Under the pieces are notes generated by a model. It was not told where the DNA came from. It did not search any database and saw only the letters and a program-made list of their open reading frames with translations. A DNA stretch of 64,000 nucleotides from assembly GCF_000026545.1 (NCBI RefSeq), contig NC_011601.1; one strand, 5' to 3'. This DNA comes from Escherichia coli O127:H6 str. E2348/69 (GTDB lineage Bacteria; Pseudomonadota; Gammaproteobacteria; Enterobacterales; Enterobacteriaceae). The translations under genes were made by a program, and so were the position numbers. The first letter of the stretch is position 1. The number at the start of each line of letters is the position of its first letter. Positions 1,259-9,338 of the stretch are shown in pieces.

Positions 1259-2359
1259 ATGATTCCTGAAATTGAACTTAGAGATATTCAGCCAAAGGGA
1301 AGCAGTGATGTCCCGTCGTCTTCGCACATTCAGACTGGATTACCGATTCCAAAAACAGTGCGGGTTCAGTTCTTTAGCCCTGACGAATGGGAGTCGTTTA
1401 CAGAGGAATGGGCAAGTTATCTCAAAAATGAATATGTTGCAGCCAGACGCTTTGGGGGTTCTGGTGATCTTGGGATAGATATTGCTGGTTTCTGTTCTGA
1501 CAAGGGATTCGAGGCGGTATGGGATAATTATCAATGCAAGCGCTATGGACATCCTCTTCGGCCTGGTGATATCTGGGTTGAAATTGGCAAGATTATTTAT
1601 TACTCATATCTTGGCAAATATACCCCTCCACGAAAGCATTTTTTTGTTTGCTCTCAGGGAATAGGAACCAGTCTTGAACAGTTGTTGAACAAGCCTACTG
1701 AGTTGAAAGAAAAATCGATTGAAAACTGGGATAATTACTGTCTCAAGGGTATCACTTCTACTGCTGAAATTCCGTTGACTGGTGCATTAAGAGCTTACCT
1801 CGACGCATTTGATTTCACTATTTTCTCATCAAAATCGATAGTTGAGCTTATCGAAATTCATGCCAGAACGGGTTTTCACTCGGTTCGCTTTGGCGGCGGG
1901 CTGCCGTATCGGCCTAATCCATCTTCTCCACCAACCATACCGACGGAAAATGAAAGCCGATACATTCGCCAGTTGCTTGATGCCTATGGAGACCATTTAG
2001 GCACAAATTTACCAGACGCTGCTTCGTTGGCGTCACACAATCAATTTCGTAGTGACTATCTTCGCCAGCGCGAACGTTTTTATCACGCAGAATCGCTAAA
2101 GAATTTTGCGCGAGATACTGTTCCTGCGGGGACATTTGATGCCTTACAGGATGAAATCTACCATGGCGTAATTGATGTCTGCGAAGATTATCACTTGAGT
2201 GGATTTGCGAGAATGAAAGAAACCATGAAGCACGCTACCACTATCGCTGTCACATCAAATCCGTTGGTCACTTCAATTAAAACACAAGATCGCCAAGGTA
2301 TATGCCATCAGTTGGCTAATGACGATCGCCTGATTTGGGTGCCAGATAATGAATCATAA
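1259..2359 (+). CDS. Mrr-like PD-(D/E)xK nuclease-domain protein; candidate effector (LmuA-like) of a Lamassu/ABC-3C-type defence operon
   Basis: 366-aa ORF; N-terminal motif RRFGGSGDLGIDIAG...WDNYQCKRY matches the Mrr-type restriction endonuclease catalytic signature (D..D...QxK); AGGGA 6 nt upstream of ATG; stop overlaps start of next ORF. Confidence 0.6.
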   Translation: MIPEIELRDIQPKGSSDVPSSSHIQTGLPIPKTVRVQFFSPDEWESFTEEWASYLKNEYVAARRFGGSGDLGIDIAGFCSDKGFEAVWDNYQCKRYGHPLRPGDIWVEIGKIIYYSYLGKYTPPRKHFFVCSQGIGTSLEQLLNKPTELKEKSIENWDNYCLKGITSTAEIPLTGALRAYLDAFDFTIFSSKSIVELIEIHARTGFHSVRFGGGLPYRPNPSSPPTIPTENESRYIRQLLDAYGDHLGTNLPDAASLASHNQFRSDYLRQRERFYHAESLKNFARDTVPAGTFDALQDEIYHGVIDVCEDYHLSGFARMKETMKHATTIAVTSNPLVTSIKTQDRQGICHQLANDDRLIWVPDNES

Positions 2360-2834
2360 AAAACATCCAGAGCCCTTTAATAGTCCTTTCGAAACCGGGA
2401 TACGTTCGCTTGCGATTCTGGTTGCAGCCTTCCCTGAGTCTTATGATTTGCAACGGCTAGTTGAAATGGATTATCTCGTTGTGCATTCCGGTGATGCTGA
2501 TGGTCCTGACAGTTTGCATGCCCCATTACCGATGCGTGCGGGCGAACTACTGGTCAGGCATGGTTTGATTGAAAAGGGATTGATGCTCATGATGAGCAGG
2601 GGGCTCGTCCAACGTGTTTCAGCCAGTGATGGGTTCAACTATCTTGCTGGGGAGCTCGCTGCACCTTTTATCTCTTCTCTTACGACTGAATATTCATGTC
2701 GACTAAAAGTTTGTGCTGAATGGGTAACTGGTGAATTTAAAGACCTGCCTACGCAGGAAATACGGAACATTACGCATCGCTTGTTTCAGCAGTGGTCGAG
2801 TCAGTTCCAGAGTATTCAGTCATCTGGAGGATGA
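2349..2834 (+). CDS. small protein, candidate middle component (LmuC-like) of the three-gene operon
   Basis: 161-aa ORF; ATG at 2349 overlaps the upstream stop (2357-2359) and its TGA (2832-2834) overlaps ATGATGATG of the next gene, implying translational coupling; no recognisable catalytic motif. Confidence 0.5.
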   Translation: MNHKKHPEPFNSPFETGIRSLAILVAAFPESYDLQRLVEMDYLVVHSGDADGPDSLHAPLPMRAGELLVRHGLIEKGLMLMMSRGLVQRVSASDGFNYLAGELAAPFISSLTTEYSCRLKVCAEWVTGEFKDLPTQEIRNITHRLFQQWSSQFQSIQSSGG

Positions 2835-4663
2835 TGATGAGCGATAATTATTTGCAGCTTAGAAAAATTTTGTTCCATGGCCAAACCAAAGAATCCGTTT
2901 TATCTTTTTCATCCGGTATTAATGTGATTTGTGGGGCTTCCGATACCGGCAAATCATTCCTGGCAGAAACTCTGGATTTTATGCTGGGTGGAACGGAGCT
3001 CAGGGAAATTACAGAATTAGCTGCTTATGCAGAAATAACTCTCGATTTTGTCACCAGTGATGGTCGAAGTTGGCGTCTTCAACGTGCAGTGACTGGCGGG
3101 AATTTCAAGTTAACTGATTTGGATGAGCCAGACTCGGAACCTATCGTGCTAAAACAGAAGTACGTTCGGGGTAAAACGGATAATATCTCCAGTTTTTTAC
3201 TTGAACAGATTGGCTTGCCGAATAAGGAGATTTTGAAAAGTAGTACCAAAGCGACGACTCAGGGACTGAGCTTCCGCAATCTGGCGAGACTTGCTCTGGT
3301 TCAGGAAGATGAAATTCAGCATAAAGGCTCTCCCTTTTGGAGTGGGCAGTTCACAACCAAAACCGCTGAACTGGCAACGGTCAAACTGCTGCTGACAGGG
3401 GGTGATGATTCTGCGGTCGTTGCAGTGAGTGGCGATGGTGTAAGCAATACGTCTCAGATTATGTTGATTGATGAGTTAATTGCGGAGTTATCCATTGAAA
3501 TTAAGGATATGGGAGAAGAGCGTGATGATCTGGCTTCCCAACTGACCCGCCTTGAACAATCTATTGAGAGTCAACGTGAATCGCTCACTGCCGCACAGCA
3601 GCAACTAGAGCAGTTATTACAACAAAGGGGACTGGCCTTTGATGAGCGAAACAAAATCCAGGGACGACTGGATGAGATATCCGAACTACTTGCCAGATTT
3701 ACACTTCTGAATGAGCATTATGTTATAGATATCAACCGTCTGAAATCCATTCAGGAGTGTGGCTTGCTCTTCATGCATATTGACGTGATTCCTTGCCCTC
3801 ATTGTGGAGCTAGTCCAGCTCACCAACACCTGGAACAAATATGTGATGGAGATGTAGATTCAATCATTACTTCAGCAACTGCCGAGATGCAAAAGACCGA
3901 ACGACTTTTGGCAGAGCTGAATTGTACAGTCAGAGATCTTGTCAGCGAAAAGCAACGCCTTGAGAAGCAATACATTGTCCATGAAGAGGATTATTTGCGT
4001 CTTGATAAAGCCATTCGGGAAACTATTGCTCCTGAAGTTGACAGTTTCAGGCACTCGTATGCTGAACTGATCGACGAACGGGCCAGTGTCCAGCAATCTA
4101 TTGATTTGTTCTCAAGATTGGACCGGCTGGAAAGCAGGAAAGTGGCATTACAAAGCGATACTCCGGTAAAAAAAGAAAAAAGTGCGGTGCAAAACGGCAT
4201 TCCAGAGTCTGTTGCCCATAGTCTGTCGTTAAAAATCTCCTCTATATTAAAAGACTGGCATTTCCCCGGAGCATGCCAGGTATTTTTTGACAAAGATACT
4301 TCGGATTTTGTAATTGATGGAAAACCTCGCGGTAGCCGGGGAAAGGGGCTACGAGCAATTACCCATGCGGCAGTCAGTGTCGGACTACTTGAGTTTTGCC
4401 AAGAAAATGGGCTATCGCATCCGGGATTCCTAGTTCTGGATTCCCCTCTACTGGCTTACTACAAACCAGAAGGTGAAGATGATGTAGCTTTGCAAGGTAC
4501 TGACTTGAAAGAGAAATTCTATGATTATCTTGTGAAGCACCATAATGAAGATAGTCAGATCCTTATTATAGAAAATCCGCATCCACCGCAAAGCATGAAT
4601 AAACAGATTACTATGACGGTATTCACTGGTAATCCTAGGGTTGGCCGTTTCGGATTGCTTTGA
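2831..4663 (+). CDS. SMC/Rad50-like ABC ATPase with central coiled-coil and CxxC hook (LmuB-like)
   Basis: N-terminal Walker A GASDTGKS (nt 2933-2956); long heptad-rich, Q/E/L-rich central region containing CPHC (nt 3794-3805); C-terminal hhhhD motif FLVLDSP (nt 4427-4447); GGAGG at 2826-2830; start chosen among ATG 2831/2834/2837 (track ORF begins 2792). Confidence 0.65.
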   Translation: MMMSDNYLQLRKILFHGQTKESVLSFSSGINVICGASDTGKSFLAETLDFMLGGTELREITELAAYAEITLDFVTSDGRSWRLQRAVTGGNFKLTDLDEPDSEPIVLKQKYVRGKTDNISSFLLEQIGLPNKEILKSSTKATTQGLSFRNLARLALVQEDEIQHKGSPFWSGQFTTKTAELATVKLLLTGGDDSAVVAVSGDGVSNTSQIMLIDELIAELSIEIKDMGEERDDLASQLTRLEQSIESQRESLTAAQQQLEQLLQQRGLAFDERNKIQGRLDEISELLARFTLLNEHYVIDINRLKSIQECGLLFMHIDVIPCPHCGASPAHQHLEQICDGDVDSIITSATAEMQKTERLLAELNCTVRDLVSEKQRLEKQYIVHEEDYLRLDKAIRETIAPEVDSFRHSYAELIDERASVQQSIDLFSRLDRLESRKVALQSDTPVKKEKSAVQNGIPESVAHSLSLKISSILKDWHFPGACQVFFDKDTSDFVIDGKPRGSRGKGLRAITHAAVSVGLLEFCQENGLSHPGFLVLDSPLLAYYKPEGEDDVALQGTDLKEKFYDYLVKHHNEDSQILIIENPHPPQSMNKQITMTVFTGNPRVGRFGLL

Positions 4664-4830
4664 TTAGGAGGATGGTTTGAATGGAAACACAATGCACAAT
4701 GTCGTGCAGTTGTTGCTGCGCACAATGGTCGTTTATGGACGAAGTTATCACTTCAGTCAAAAGAATTTTAAGTAGCTAAGCTGCGCGTTGGATAGGTAAT
4801 GAAATGACATAAACAGATATTATAGCGACC

Positions 4831-5292
4831 GTGGCATGTGCCATATCAGGGGTCGCCGCGCTATTTTCAGGAATAGCATTATGTCAATCAGCAAAAGCAA
4901 ACCGCAGAGCAAATCAGGTATCAGAGCGAGGCTTGCGTATTGATTTAGTTGATTGTCGTATGAATATACGGAATGCGTTCACGTTAATTATGGATGAGTT
5001 CGAGGCGCAGAGATACGGGCCAGCAGATAACTATATTATTCAGGCAAAAATCACCTTCCGTGATGCGGGTATATTTTTTGGTAATGACGTAAGTGAATTT
5101 CTTACCGAGTTAATGAGACAAATTAGCACCTACAGCGAGATATTTAAAACTAGGACAATGGGCCGTCTTATTTTTGACCCTCAAGGAGATGTTAGAGAGG
5201 AAGAGCAACGATTAGAACAAATAAGGCTATGGGTGATAGCACAGCGTGGGCCCGGCAATGACATGTTCGACAGAATCATGAGTGTTTCATGA
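4831..5292 (+). CDS. hypothetical protein, N-terminal hydrophobic segment; start uncertain (GTG at 4831 or internal ATG)
   Basis: 153-aa ORF with AT-rich rare codons (ata, aga, tta), followed immediately by a stem-loop plus T-tract; no motif recognised. Confidence 0.35.
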   Translation: MACAISGVAALFSGIALCQSAKANRRANQVSERGLRIDLVDCRMNIRNAFTLIMDEFEAQRYGPADNYIIQAKITFRDAGIFFGNDVSEFLTELMRQISTYSEIFKTRTMGRLIFDPQGDVREEEQRLEQIRLWVIAQRGPGNDMFDRIMSVS

Positions 5293-5302
5293 TACACGCT
5301 AG

Positions 5303-5332
5303 ACCCGGCCTCAGTGCCGGGTGTTTAATTTT
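5303..5332 (+). terminator. Rho-independent terminator-like hairpin downstream of the 153-aa ORF
   Basis: acccggc-ctcagt-gccgggt stem-loop followed by gtttaatttt. Confidence 0.45.
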
Positions 5333-5569
5333 CCTAACTACAACCGTCGCCTCACCGTCCCCCAAACGAATCGGAACAGCTGTTCCATGAACAGTCAGAT
5401 GGTGTGGCCCAAATTAGTTGCCCACTACACTTCAAGACTATAAATTCTGGAGTAACAGTCGGTTAGCTTCCTTCATGGGCCAGTCATGGCGAGTTGTTAA
5501 GTATGGCTGTTTGCGATAAGCTTTAGATACTCTTTAGCGTTGGACGGTTACGTCTAGTCGGGTGATTAG

Positions 5570-6607
<1,038 letters not shown>

Positions 6608-6681
6608 AAACCAAGGGAGAATCCAGTCGTTGGCGGTTCATGGATTGTTCTGCTCATTAACAACGACCAAAACCCCATATC

Positions 6682-8004
6682 TTACTTAATACCGTATTCT
6701 CGGCTTAACCGACCGTGCAACCTCAACACATTGGTTTCAACTGCCGTCACCACGTTCTCCGGAAAATCTGTCGGTAATGAAGTCTTCACGTTATCCAGTG
6801 CTGCCGGAATCATTCTGGCAAAGTCACTCAGGATTTCATGCATCTGCACTTCCGGGAATTTCAGCACCTTTGCTGTCGCCAGAAAATGTCGCGGATAAAT
6901 TTTATCGATTGCCGTTTTTTTGCCTTTGGATGCGTTAAGCCCCATTGCCAGTTTGAGATCGCTGATGTGTATTCCCGTACCGCCAAGGACCGGAAATGCC
7001 GAAATGATGTCATAAAATGGTGTGAGCCGATAACTGCCGCCAGCCTGAATAAATACGGAGAAGTTTTTTGCATGGCCATCCGTTGCGCCAATCAACCACT
7101 GGAAGACCTGAAACTTCATAAAATCATAGCGATCTTTCAGCGCCTCGCTGGAGCCCATCAAAAAAGCCATAATTTGCGCGATACCGGGGCCTCCATCTGA
7201 TTCATATTTCACCGATGAAGGTAAACCGAATGTCTGGCACATATCCTCCTGTGGCAAGCGAAGTAAAACCGTTCGCTCAGTATTCCAACGCCTGTCAAAA
7301 CGTTCGACCGCTAACGCGCGCACCCTTCCCGCTTTAATGATTTCTGCGTCCGGAACATTCAACCCGAGTTCTTTCGCCAGCAGCAAACAGTAATACTCAT
7401 TATCAACGCTTTGGCTAAGATCGAGCGTCGCATTGGGCTGTCTGATTTCGCCAATCGGCAATTTGATAATGTGCGTCGTTGGCGTTATTCCCTTCGGAAT
7501 GCACCAGTCATTGCCTATTCTGAGCAGCGCAGTCTTCTCCTGTGCGCCAGCAACCGAGATGCGAAAGTCATTTTCTTCTCTAATCATGCCTAACGGGATA
7601 TCTGCTTTATAAGCCGTTAATACTTCTTCAAGTCTGGCTTCAGTAAGCTTTTCCCATGCCATTATCGGACACGTTACGGTTTCATCTTCGGGGATTAACG
7701 TCACGGCACCAACGCTGTCTCGCCCTATTTCTGACAATAAATCAAACGGTTGTCTGGATTTAGCATGATAACGTTTAACGATCCGGTCACGTACAATCGG
7801 GCTATCGGGTAACAGGTTATCGAAGAAGTTAAATACGGCATCAGAGGTGATATTCCCCCTCTGCAATGGCAGCGAAAGTGACAACGGTCTGGCATAACGG
7901 CTGGCTAACCACTCAGGTGCATACTTAAAGGTGTGCGCGCCGTTGGCTAACTTCGTTAACTCGCCTACCCGCTGGTTGTTCATCCAAGTGACTAGTTTAG
8001 GCAT
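6682..8004 (-). CDS. hipA: HipA serine/threonine kinase toxin
   Basis: 440-aa protein beginning MPKLVTWMNNQRVGELTKLANGAHTF, near-identical to remembered E. coli HipA; start overlaps hipB stop. Confidence 0.95.
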   Translation of the reverse strand: MPKLVTWMNNQRVGELTKLANGAHTFKYAPEWLASRYARPLSLSLPLQRGNITSDAVFNFFDNLLPDSPIVRDRIVKRYHAKSRQPFDLLSEIGRDSVGAVTLIPEDETVTCPIMAWEKLTEARLEEVLTAYKADIPLGMIREENDFRISVAGAQEKTALLRIGNDWCIPKGITPTTHIIKLPIGEIRQPNATLDLSQSVDNEYYCLLLAKELGLNVPDAEIIKAGRVRALAVERFDRRWNTERTVLLRLPQEDMCQTFGLPSSVKYESDGGPGIAQIMAFLMGSSEALKDRYDFMKFQVFQWLIGATDGHAKNFSVFIQAGGSYRLTPFYDIISAFPVLGGTGIHISDLKLAMGLNASKGKKTAIDKIYPRHFLATAKVLKFPEVQMHEILSDFARMIPAALDNVKTSLPTDFPENVVTAVETNVLRLHGRLSREYGIK

Positions 8005-8270
8005 CACCACTCCAGATCTTGCTGTTCTGTTGCTTCTGGCGAGGCATTTTTTGCGTCGCATAGCGTCATTGAGAGTTCAAGCGACTGTAAAATCTTAAAA
8101 AATGTCGTGAGCGAGGTATTGTCAGGATTGTTTTCGAAATTGGAAATTGTCGCCTGCTTAATGCCGATTTTTTTCGCCAACTCGCTCTGCGTCCAGCCGT
8201 TTTGCTGGCGAACCAGTTTCATTGCATTCGCCAATTGCATTGGGCTATAGATCTTCTGAAAGCTCATCAT
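8004..8270 (-). CDS. hipB: HipB antitoxin, HTH DNA-binding protein
   Basis: 88-aa protein MMSFQKIYSP...QSELAKKIGIKQATISNFEN matching HipB. Confidence 0.95.
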   Translation of the reverse strand: MMSFQKIYSPMQLANAMKLVRQQNGWTQSELAKKIGIKQATISNFENNPDNTSLTTFFKILQSLELSMTLCDAKNASPEATEQQDLEW

Positions 8271-8291
8271 GTCATACGTCCACAGCAAATT

Positions 8292-8404
8292 TATCCGCTT
8301 AAGGGGATATTATCAGTTTTATCCTTAGTGAGGATAAAGTCAATCTGGAAACACATCTTATCCGCTCTACGGGATAAACGCTGCGATATCCGCGATCGCG
8401 GATA
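8292..8404 (-). promoter_or_regulatory. hipBA promoter/operator region with four HipB operator palindromes
   Basis: TATCC-N8-GGATA-type palindromes at 8292-8309, 8320-8336 (imperfect), 8359-8376 and 8387-8404, directly upstream of hipB. Confidence 0.7.
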
Positions 8405-8576
8405 AAAAGGAGGATTTAAAAAAGCACATCCTAATGCGGTGGCTTCTTTGACTACCGGAATCTGTAATCTTAATGACCTGGCCGCGTAAAAAACGTCTGT
8501 TCAATGGGGTGATGCCGTGAGGCGAATTTATCAGTTTTATCTACAATTGGGGTAACGCGCTGACGGGAGTAAAAAA

Positions 8577-9335
8577 ATGTCTGACTGGAACCCCTCTTTA
8601 TATCTGCACTTTGCCGCTGAACGATCGCGTCCGGCAGTGGAGCTGCTTGCCAGGGTGCCGCTGGAGAATATCGAATACATTGCCGATCTTGGCTGTGGCC
8701 CAGGTAACAGCACCGCCCTTCTACACCAACGTTGGCCTGCTGCCAGGATAACGGGCATCGACTCATCTCCGGCGATGATTGCTGAAGCGCGCAGTGCTTT
8801 GCCAGACTGCCTGTTTGTGGAAGCAGATATCCGCAACTGGCAACCGGAACAGGCACTCGATCTGATTTTTGCTAATGCCTCGCTGCAATGGCTGCCCGAC
8901 CACTACGAATTGTTTCCTCATTTGGTTTCGTTACTCAGTCCGCTGGGCGTGCTGGCAGTACAGATGCCAGATAACTGGCTGGAGCCGACCCATGTGCTCA
9001 TGCGCGAAGTTGCCTGGGAACAAAACTACCCGGATCGCGGGCGTGAGCCGCTGGCTGGCGTTCATGCTTACTACGATATTCTGAGTGAAGCCGGATGTGA
9101 GGTCGATATCTGGCGAACCACTTACTATCACCAGATGCCGTCGCACCAGGCGATTATCGATTGGGTGACCGCCACTGGATTACGTCCGTGGTTACAGGAT
9201 CTGACCGAGAGCGAACAGCAGCATTTTCTTACGCGCTACCATCAGATGCTGGAAGAGCAATATCCCCTCCAGGAGAACGGACAGATATTGCTGGCATTTC
9301 CGCGTCTGTTTATTGTTGCCCGCCGTAGGGAGTAA
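8577..9335 (+). CDS. tam: trans-aconitate 2-methyltransferase
   Basis: 252-aa protein [12 protein letters not shown]...[10 protein letters not shown] (SAM-binding motif) matching Tam. Confidence 0.95.
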
Positions 9336-9338
9336 TTA

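Follow-up and report, generated by a model that had tools for sequence, protein, structure and literature searches.

The window analysed here, i.e. the whole stretch of 64 000 nucleotides, is 100% identical over the 897 nt that were queried to the genome of Escherichia coli E2348/69 (EPEC O127:H6), and the RefSeq annotation of the identical E2348/69 record was mapped onto it. On the minus strand lie hipA, which codes for the toxin kinase (6682-8004; also present in the list of open reading frames), and hipB, which codes for the antitoxin and repressor (8004-8270; the alignment with K-12 hipB ends at the start codon). On the plus strand lies tam (8577-9335, ATG at 8577), which codes for trans-aconitate 2-methyltransferase. 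hipB and tam are direct divergent neighbours, separated by a spacer of 306 nt (8271-8576) without any intact gene, and all the coordinates of the original prediction, which had placed the two starts at 8270 and 8577, about 300 bp apart, hold. That prediction had also stated that K-12 carries an autotransporter pseudogene and the lsr operon between these genes. This agrees with the annotation of K-12 MG1655, where the order is hipA, hipB, yneO (the autotransporter pseudogene), lsrK, lsrR, lsrACDBFG, tam; this autotransporter and lsr block is indeed absent from the window. A scan of positions 7800-9000 for Rfam families gave no match at E-values up to 1. Beyond the 3′ end of hipA (window positions ~5260-6580 and upstream; 2256-7571 in locus L002), there are integrase fragments and a gene with a reverse-transcriptase domain, and the same E2348/69 stretch carries an ‘ABC-three component system’ that includes an AAA ATPase; the corresponding position in K-12 is occupied by the ydeQRST fimbrial genes. 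The stretch downstream of hipA appears to be an integration spot of variable content, similar to a defence island.

From left to right, the spacer consists of the hipBA control region, 37 nt of lsrK, 59 nt of lsrG and the lsrG-tam intergenic spacer, an arrangement co-linear with K-12. The hipBA control region (8271-8424, minus strand) is homologous to the K-12 sequence upstream of hipB up to position 4598 (K-12 positions are those of locus L001), and this homology ends at 8424, where the first of two joins, J1 (8424|8425), is located. The internal fragment of lsrK that follows (8425-8461, minus strand) corresponds to K-12 positions 10830-10866, inside the lsrK coding sequence (10618-12210), and keeps its K-12 orientation. 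In a sensitive search, the 38 nt from 8424 to 8461 (K-12 counterpart 10829-10866) matched inside annotated lsrK in thousands of genomes, with 94.7-100% identity. After the second join, J2 (8461|8462), come the last 59 nt of lsrG (8462-8520, plus strand; stop codon TGA at 8518-8520). They correspond to K-12 positions 19231-19290, from which they differ by one substitution (G>T) and by the loss of 1 nt near the 5′ end of the fragment; when the spacer was aligned with the K-12 flank, homology to the lsrG-tam side began in the 8460s. The remaining 56 nt (8521-8576, plus strand), the lsrG-tam intergenic spacer, have the same length as in K-12 and hold the putative tam promoter and ribosome-binding site.

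Compared with K-12, about 14.6 kb is missing, in two co-linear gaps. The first (~6.2 kb, K-12 positions 4599-10829) comprises an autotransporter gene of the yneO/ECSE_1600 type, the DNA that separates it from lsrK, and the 3′ end of lsrK; the second (~8.4 kb, 10867-19230) comprises the remainder of lsrK, lsrR, lsrACDBF and most of lsrG. The lsr debris left behind, 37 nt from lsrK and 59 nt from lsrG, amounts to 96 nt. Because coding debris of two lsr genes is present, the spacer is a secondary deletion and not an ancestral empty site.

The left part of the spacer carries the operators of HipB. Their consensus is TATCC-N8-GGATA, and four of them, O1 to O4, are known at the hipBA promoter (PMC3920265, PMC3376134). 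The window has four operators too, at the K-12 positions. O1 (8292-8309) is an exact TATCC-N8-GGATA sequence, identical to O1 of the published K-12 O1O2 oligonucleotide, which reads ...GGGGATATTATAAGTTTTATCC... (PMC3376134); O3 (8359-8376) and O4 (8387-8404) are matches to the pattern. O2 (8320-8336) differs from its K-12 counterpart in that it reads TATCC TTAGTGA GGATA, with a spacer of 7 nt caused by the loss of 1 nt in the E2348/69 (O127:H6) lineage only: the canonical 8-nt spacer is present in K-12, as well as in six further genomes carrying this hipB-tam junction, while the 7-nt form occurs in 4 of 20 395 records, the three listed being E2348/69 and two O127:H6 records. Such a spacer may weaken HipB binding at O2 or shift the phasing of the operators. 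A second difference from the K-12 array lies in the 10-nt linker between O1 and O2, where the window has C for A, giving GATAAT instead of TATAAT on the hipB-sense strand. The polymorphic base (window 8314, K-12 4487) is position 1 of this -10-like hexamer, which is putatively the -10 element of the hipBA promoter. GATAAT is found in the window, in other B2 genomes, in O157:H7 PV15-279 and in strain 19KM1831, and TATAAT in K-12-type alleles. The linker reads TTATCAGTTT in the window and many E. coli, TTATAAGTTT in K-12, TTTTCAGTTT in Escherichia sp. E1V33, TTGTCAGTTT in Escherichia sp. MOD1-EC7003, and TTAGTGGTTT or TCTGCTCTTT in Pseudocitrobacter.

A scan for two HipB operators 10 nt apart, with one genome per species, gave 103 stretches. 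In many of these, from many genera of Gammaproteobacteria, the tandem operators are located directly upstream of a hipB homologue, and the linkers are variable. Two to four HipB-type operators in a 28-nt register were seen upstream of hipB homologues in Vibrio, Aliivibrio, Photorhabdus, Serratia, Pantoea, Halomonas and other genera (loci L007-L109); the half-sites and the 10-nt length of the linker are far more widely conserved than the linker sequence.

In the right part of the spacer, the hexamer TACAAT (8542-8547, plus strand), preceded by a C (sigma-S-like), is the putative -10 of tam. tam is listed as RpoS-dependent (PMC2907692), and the consulted part of another study reports that its expression rises on entry into stationary phase in the lsr-negative B2 strain 83972 (PMC12263705). 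Upstream of tam in Enterobacter and in the enterobacterial MAG OH_SBB_50, the sequence CTATTCT is found, and what lies upstream of this motif is unrelated; the distance from the end of the motif to the tam ATG is 30 nt for CTATTCT in the MAG and 29 nt for CTACAAT in the window. A consensus scan of 8150-8700 for sigma-70 promoters and intrinsic terminators returned no sites, and the promoter assignments given here, for hipBA and for tam alike, come from reading the sequence and comparing it with other loci.

hipB and tam were found in one contiguous match in 963 of 5426 complete E. coli genomes. Six lsr-negative genomes of diverse source, among them Nissle 1917 and the type strain ATCC 11775, have exactly the same break points. 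The junction is common to B2 strains, as a single origin implies: Nissle 1917, ATCC 11775, three further genomes and strain A25 have it. The arrangement in the window, with hipB and tam contiguous and neither lsr nor autotransporter genes between them, is that of the B2-type allele, and E2348/69 is a strain that we take to belong to phylogroup B2; the assignment of the junction to this phylogroup is based on known strain identities and on the literature.

The sequences at the joins bear on the way in which the DNA was lost. J1 falls in a GGC common to both K-12 parents, which read ...TAAATAAGGC on the hipB side and ...CAATGGCACATCC in lsrK. Strain A25, isolated from a monkey (L116, around position 3000), has the same junction and reads AAGGCACATCC, with two G (AAGGCAC), at J1, as a join through the GGC microhomology should give; one of these G is missing from E2348/69 and from five other genomes. 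The records of a pig isolate and of MS 16-3 give the same BLAST pattern as A25. At J2, lsrK ...ACCGGAAT is joined to lsrG CTGGAATCT... with zero overlap, giving the present CTGTAATCT, and a GGAAT motif is found 2 nt from the join. The joins would have arisen by illegitimate recombination with little homology. In bacteria, illegitimate, microhomology-poor deletion and stepwise erosion of pseudogenes share two properties with this junction: there is 0-3 nt of homology at the break points, and short co-linear fragments of the lost genes remain. It differs from stepwise erosion in that no intermediate stages of the hipB-tam junction were found within E. coli: synthetic queries for an allele with J1 only or with J2 only matched none of the 5426 genomes at ≥80% coverage. 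One reason for the lack of such intermediates could be that a single complex break-repair event removed the 14.6 kb, with the 37 nt of lsrK captured as filler, and that there never were two successive deletions. The fragment being co-linear and in its native orientation is also counted in favour of such an event. Against it, Escherichia sp. MOD1-EC7003 has an independent lsr-negative allele in which at least three pieces of lsrK form a patchwork, as stepwise pseudogene erosion yields, and partial lsr deletions are common in E. coli (REL606; consulted part of Brito et al. 2013). We consider the single event rather unlikely. The lsr-positive strain 19KM1831, whose lsrK stretch is identical to the fragment, was considered as a pre-deletion relative and rejected, because its tam and hipA are ~95-96% identical to those of the window, i.e. 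as distant as in other phylogroups.

In MOD1-EC7003 (L101, 2596-2997), lsr is lost and hipB lies next to tam, with a spacer of 400 nt. The debris consists of lsrK 10973-11000 and 11184-11307, then the lsrG tail from 19237 (K-12 numbering), lsrK being in three pieces. The outer end points are within 2 nt (after GGATTTAAAAAA) and 6 nt (in the lsrG tail) of those of the B2 deletion. A common origin of the two deletions was considered but is not supported, since they have no junction in common and MOD1-EC7003 is equidistant from all the E. coli alleles. One random deletion does not explain end points that nearly coincide in this way; they point either to convergent erosion to functional boundaries or to a deletion hot spot. 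Our best guess is that lsr was eroded stepwise in both lineages, down to functional limits that would be set by the region upstream of hipBA and by that of the tam promoter. More precisely, the final ~55-60 nt of lsrG and the run of A upstream of O4 could mark the functional limits of the tam and hipBA control regions, respectively.

Other genomes show different changes at this locus. In REL606 (L110), everything between the autotransporter N-terminus and a point within lsrD is absent, including these two parts. ST648 (L005) and O157:H7 3-5-1 (L006) have lost hipB and part of hipA, and lsrA of the O157 strain is also frameshifted. In the species representative E. coli SCPM-O-B-8794 (L015, 826-1130), ~83 nt separate the hipBA operators from the 3′ flank of lsrK, without yneO/ECSE_1600; the autotransporter gene itself is thus variably present between hipB and lsr.

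The original prediction had drawn attention to a 14-bp direct repeat in the spacer. We confirm that TTATCAGTTTTATC occurs in two exact copies in the window, at 8310-8323 and 8528-8541 (both plus strand), and nowhere else in it, even when one mismatch is allowed (0.03 further matches expected). The left copy was said to overlap a HipB operator, and it does: it adjoins O1 and consists of the 10-nt O1-O2 linker and TATC, the 4 nt with which O2 begins. Its sequence on the hipB-sense strand, GATAAAACTGATAA, contains most of GATAAT. The right copy starts 7 nt past the lsrG stop codon and, as had been stated, 49 nt upstream of the tam ATG; it ends directly before the putative tam -10 and therefore lies, probably, just upstream of the -10 of tam's own promoter. 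Similarity between the copies extends leftwards, to 19 identities in 22 nt. No other pair of direct repeats of at least 14 nt lies within 400 nt in the window. Such a pair arose in 9% of 64-kb windows simulated with a first-order Markov model and, by extrapolation, about seven pairs are expected by chance in a 5-Mb genome; in simulations of the 306-nt spacer alone, the chance falls to 0.015% (∼1.5×10−4).

Both exact copies are present at the corresponding places in lsr-positive genomes, for example in strain 19KM1831 and in O157:H7 PV15-279, where they are 14.8 kb apart (left copy at 1 948 794, right copy at 1 963 614, beside lsrG). The repeat is therefore older than the deletion. An exact 36-mer containing the left copy in its C form was found in 2205 records, more than twice the number of the 963 junction genomes; most other records have a single difference, and they include K-12-type genomes, for instance REL606. 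The context of the right copy was found in ~4400 genomes. In strain VE-T9 (L004), an IS200/IS605 element directly after the lsrG stop codon removes the right 14-mer. The check that had been proposed thus has a positive outcome, as the repeat exists at the junctions of lsr-positive genomes. In K-12 itself each copy has one substitution (TTATAAG.. on the left; TTATCAA.. on the right, where the whole copy is TTATCAATTTTATC), so that the two match at 12 of 14 positions. For MOD1-EC7003, where the left copy begins TTGTCAG.. and the right one is exact, the figure is 13 of 14. The two copies drift independently of each other between lineages.

The prediction offered two explanations for the repeat, a recombination scar and an ancestral junction sequence, neither of which we can uphold. 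The first would have the lsr block excised by recombination between the two 14-nt direct repeats, the repeat being the footprint. The copies do lie on either side of the missing block, in direct orientation, and lsr-positive genomes have both of them, so that there is a likeness to short-direct-repeat-mediated deletion (slipped mispairing/RecA-independent), where direct repeats flank the deleted DNA in undeleted genomes. But recombination between direct repeats removes the intervening DNA and keeps one copy, whereas here two remain. Between them are still 204 nt, made of O2-O4 and the DNA upstream, the 37 nt of lsrK, the 59-nt lsrG tail and 7 nt of the lsrG-tam spacer, and the break points are located outside the repeats, 101 nt from the left copy and 66 nt from the right one, towards the inside. 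A synthetic junction with one copy gave no single-piece match in the 5426 genomes, only matches in two pieces or with mismatches. Because both copies survive, they were not the substrate of recombination, and this origin of the deletion is almost certainly wrong.

The second explanation takes hipB and tam to have been adjacent before lsr arrived, with the repeats as att-like sites or as a target-site duplication of a yneO-lsr island. Neighbourhoods of this kind exist: hipB and tam are adjacent and divergent, without lsr and with uxaB nearby, in the MAG OH_SBB_50 (L022, 5175-7325), and hipBA and tam lie 3-4 kb apart without lsr in Enterobacter wuhouensis (L029, 20-4070) and E. soli (L084, 5215-11333). 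Moreover, lsr is thought to spread horizontally (cited in the consulted part of PMC12263705). The hipBA-tam neighbourhood may thus be older than the presence of lsr in Escherichia. Even so, the B2 junction is secondary, since the lsrK and lsrG debris in the spacer shows that lsr was once present and then lost. An island bounded by the repeats would also include O2-O4, yet the same four-operator array is found at hipBA of Pseudocitrobacter, at loci where no lsr protein matches were detected, and hence these operators belong to hipBA and not to an inserted island. In addition, the 14-mer is absent upstream of tam in the MAG and in Enterobacter, and a site with one copy was not found in the 5426 genomes. 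The repeats do not behave as the att sites or target-site duplication of a genomic island, and it is highly improbable that the window retains an ancestral empty site.

Another possibility is that the 14-nt (19/22 nt) sequence is a cis-element shared by the hipBA and tam promoters. Its TTATC-N4-TTATC form would be the candidate site for one factor acting on either side of yneO-lsr and coupling the expression of the persistence toxin to that of a stationary-phase methyltransferase; if this were true, the B2 deletion would have reduced the distance between the two sites to 218 nt. The match is locally improbable, both copies are in promoter regions, and tam is a stationary-phase, RpoS-dependent gene. 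However, the left copy covers the putative -10 region on the opposite strand, while the right one precedes the -10, on the same strand; the copies vary separately among lineages, and neither is conserved outside Escherichia. Nor is the 14-mer a HipB operator, as the left copy is the linker and the right one is without the TATCC-N8-GGATA palindrome. Inspection by eye revealed no convincing match to an IHF consensus or a Fur box in the 14-mer. A shared binding site is very improbable on this evidence, and so is the coupling that it would provide.

We are left with coincidence, which is argued by exclusion and is the best reading of the identity of the two copies, because none of the mechanistic readings holds and most of the left copy is operator-related TTATC/TATCC sequence. 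The counterpoint is that a 14-nt (19/22) match between the flanks of the deletion is improbable when these flanks alone are considered (∼1.5×10−4).

Taken together, the hipB-tam spacer is very probably the scar of a fixed deletion that removed the lsr locus (AI-2 uptake and processing) and is typical of phylogroup B2, and the 14-nt repeat is older and unrelated. About 14.6 kb is missing in two co-linear gaps, and the lsrK fragment and the end of lsrG are left. Direct observation covers the anatomy of the spacer, the break points, the occurrence of both repeat copies in lsr-positive genomes and the sharing of one junction by many genomes; the mechanism of recombination, the number and order of the deletion events and the promoter assignments are inferred. 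The deletion would have made divergent neighbours of the HipB-operator array with the hipBA promoter, on one side, and tam's own promoter, on the other, and would have severed tam from any transcription coming out of the lsrA promoter. The repeat, which would owe its identity to the chance resemblance of two AT-rich promoter segments, would have become conspicuous only when the deletion brought its copies within 218 nt of each other.

The loss of lsr from phylogroup B2 is already known. lsr was inferred to have been present ancestrally in E. coli, so that genomes without it have lost it (Brito et al. 2013, PMC3595036), and more than 95% of B2 genomes keep <100 bp of lsr homology, with tam retained (Keizers et al. 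2025, PMC12263705), as stated in the consulted parts of these papers. The 96 nt of debris fits this <100-bp class. Compared with the lsr-negative B2 genotype as described in the same parts, the window is alike in that lsrRK-lsrACDBFG is absent, the residue is <100 bp and tam is kept, and there is no difference of substance. The nucleotide-level junction (37-nt lsrK fragment, 59-nt lsrG tail, GGC microhomology and joint loss of the autotransporter gene) is not described in those parts of either paper. Our analysis adds the anatomy of the scar at nucleotide level, which shows loss rather than primary absence, the loss of the autotransporter gene as well, and evidence against taking the 14-nt repeat for a recombination footprint. 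The possible meaning of the absence of lsr for the fitness of B2 strains has already been published, and the finding, real but ordinary, has little significance beyond bookkeeping. It leaves two small leads: the independent lsr losses in two Escherichia species, which end at nearly the same outer limits, and the O2 spacer deletion in the E2348/69 lineage.
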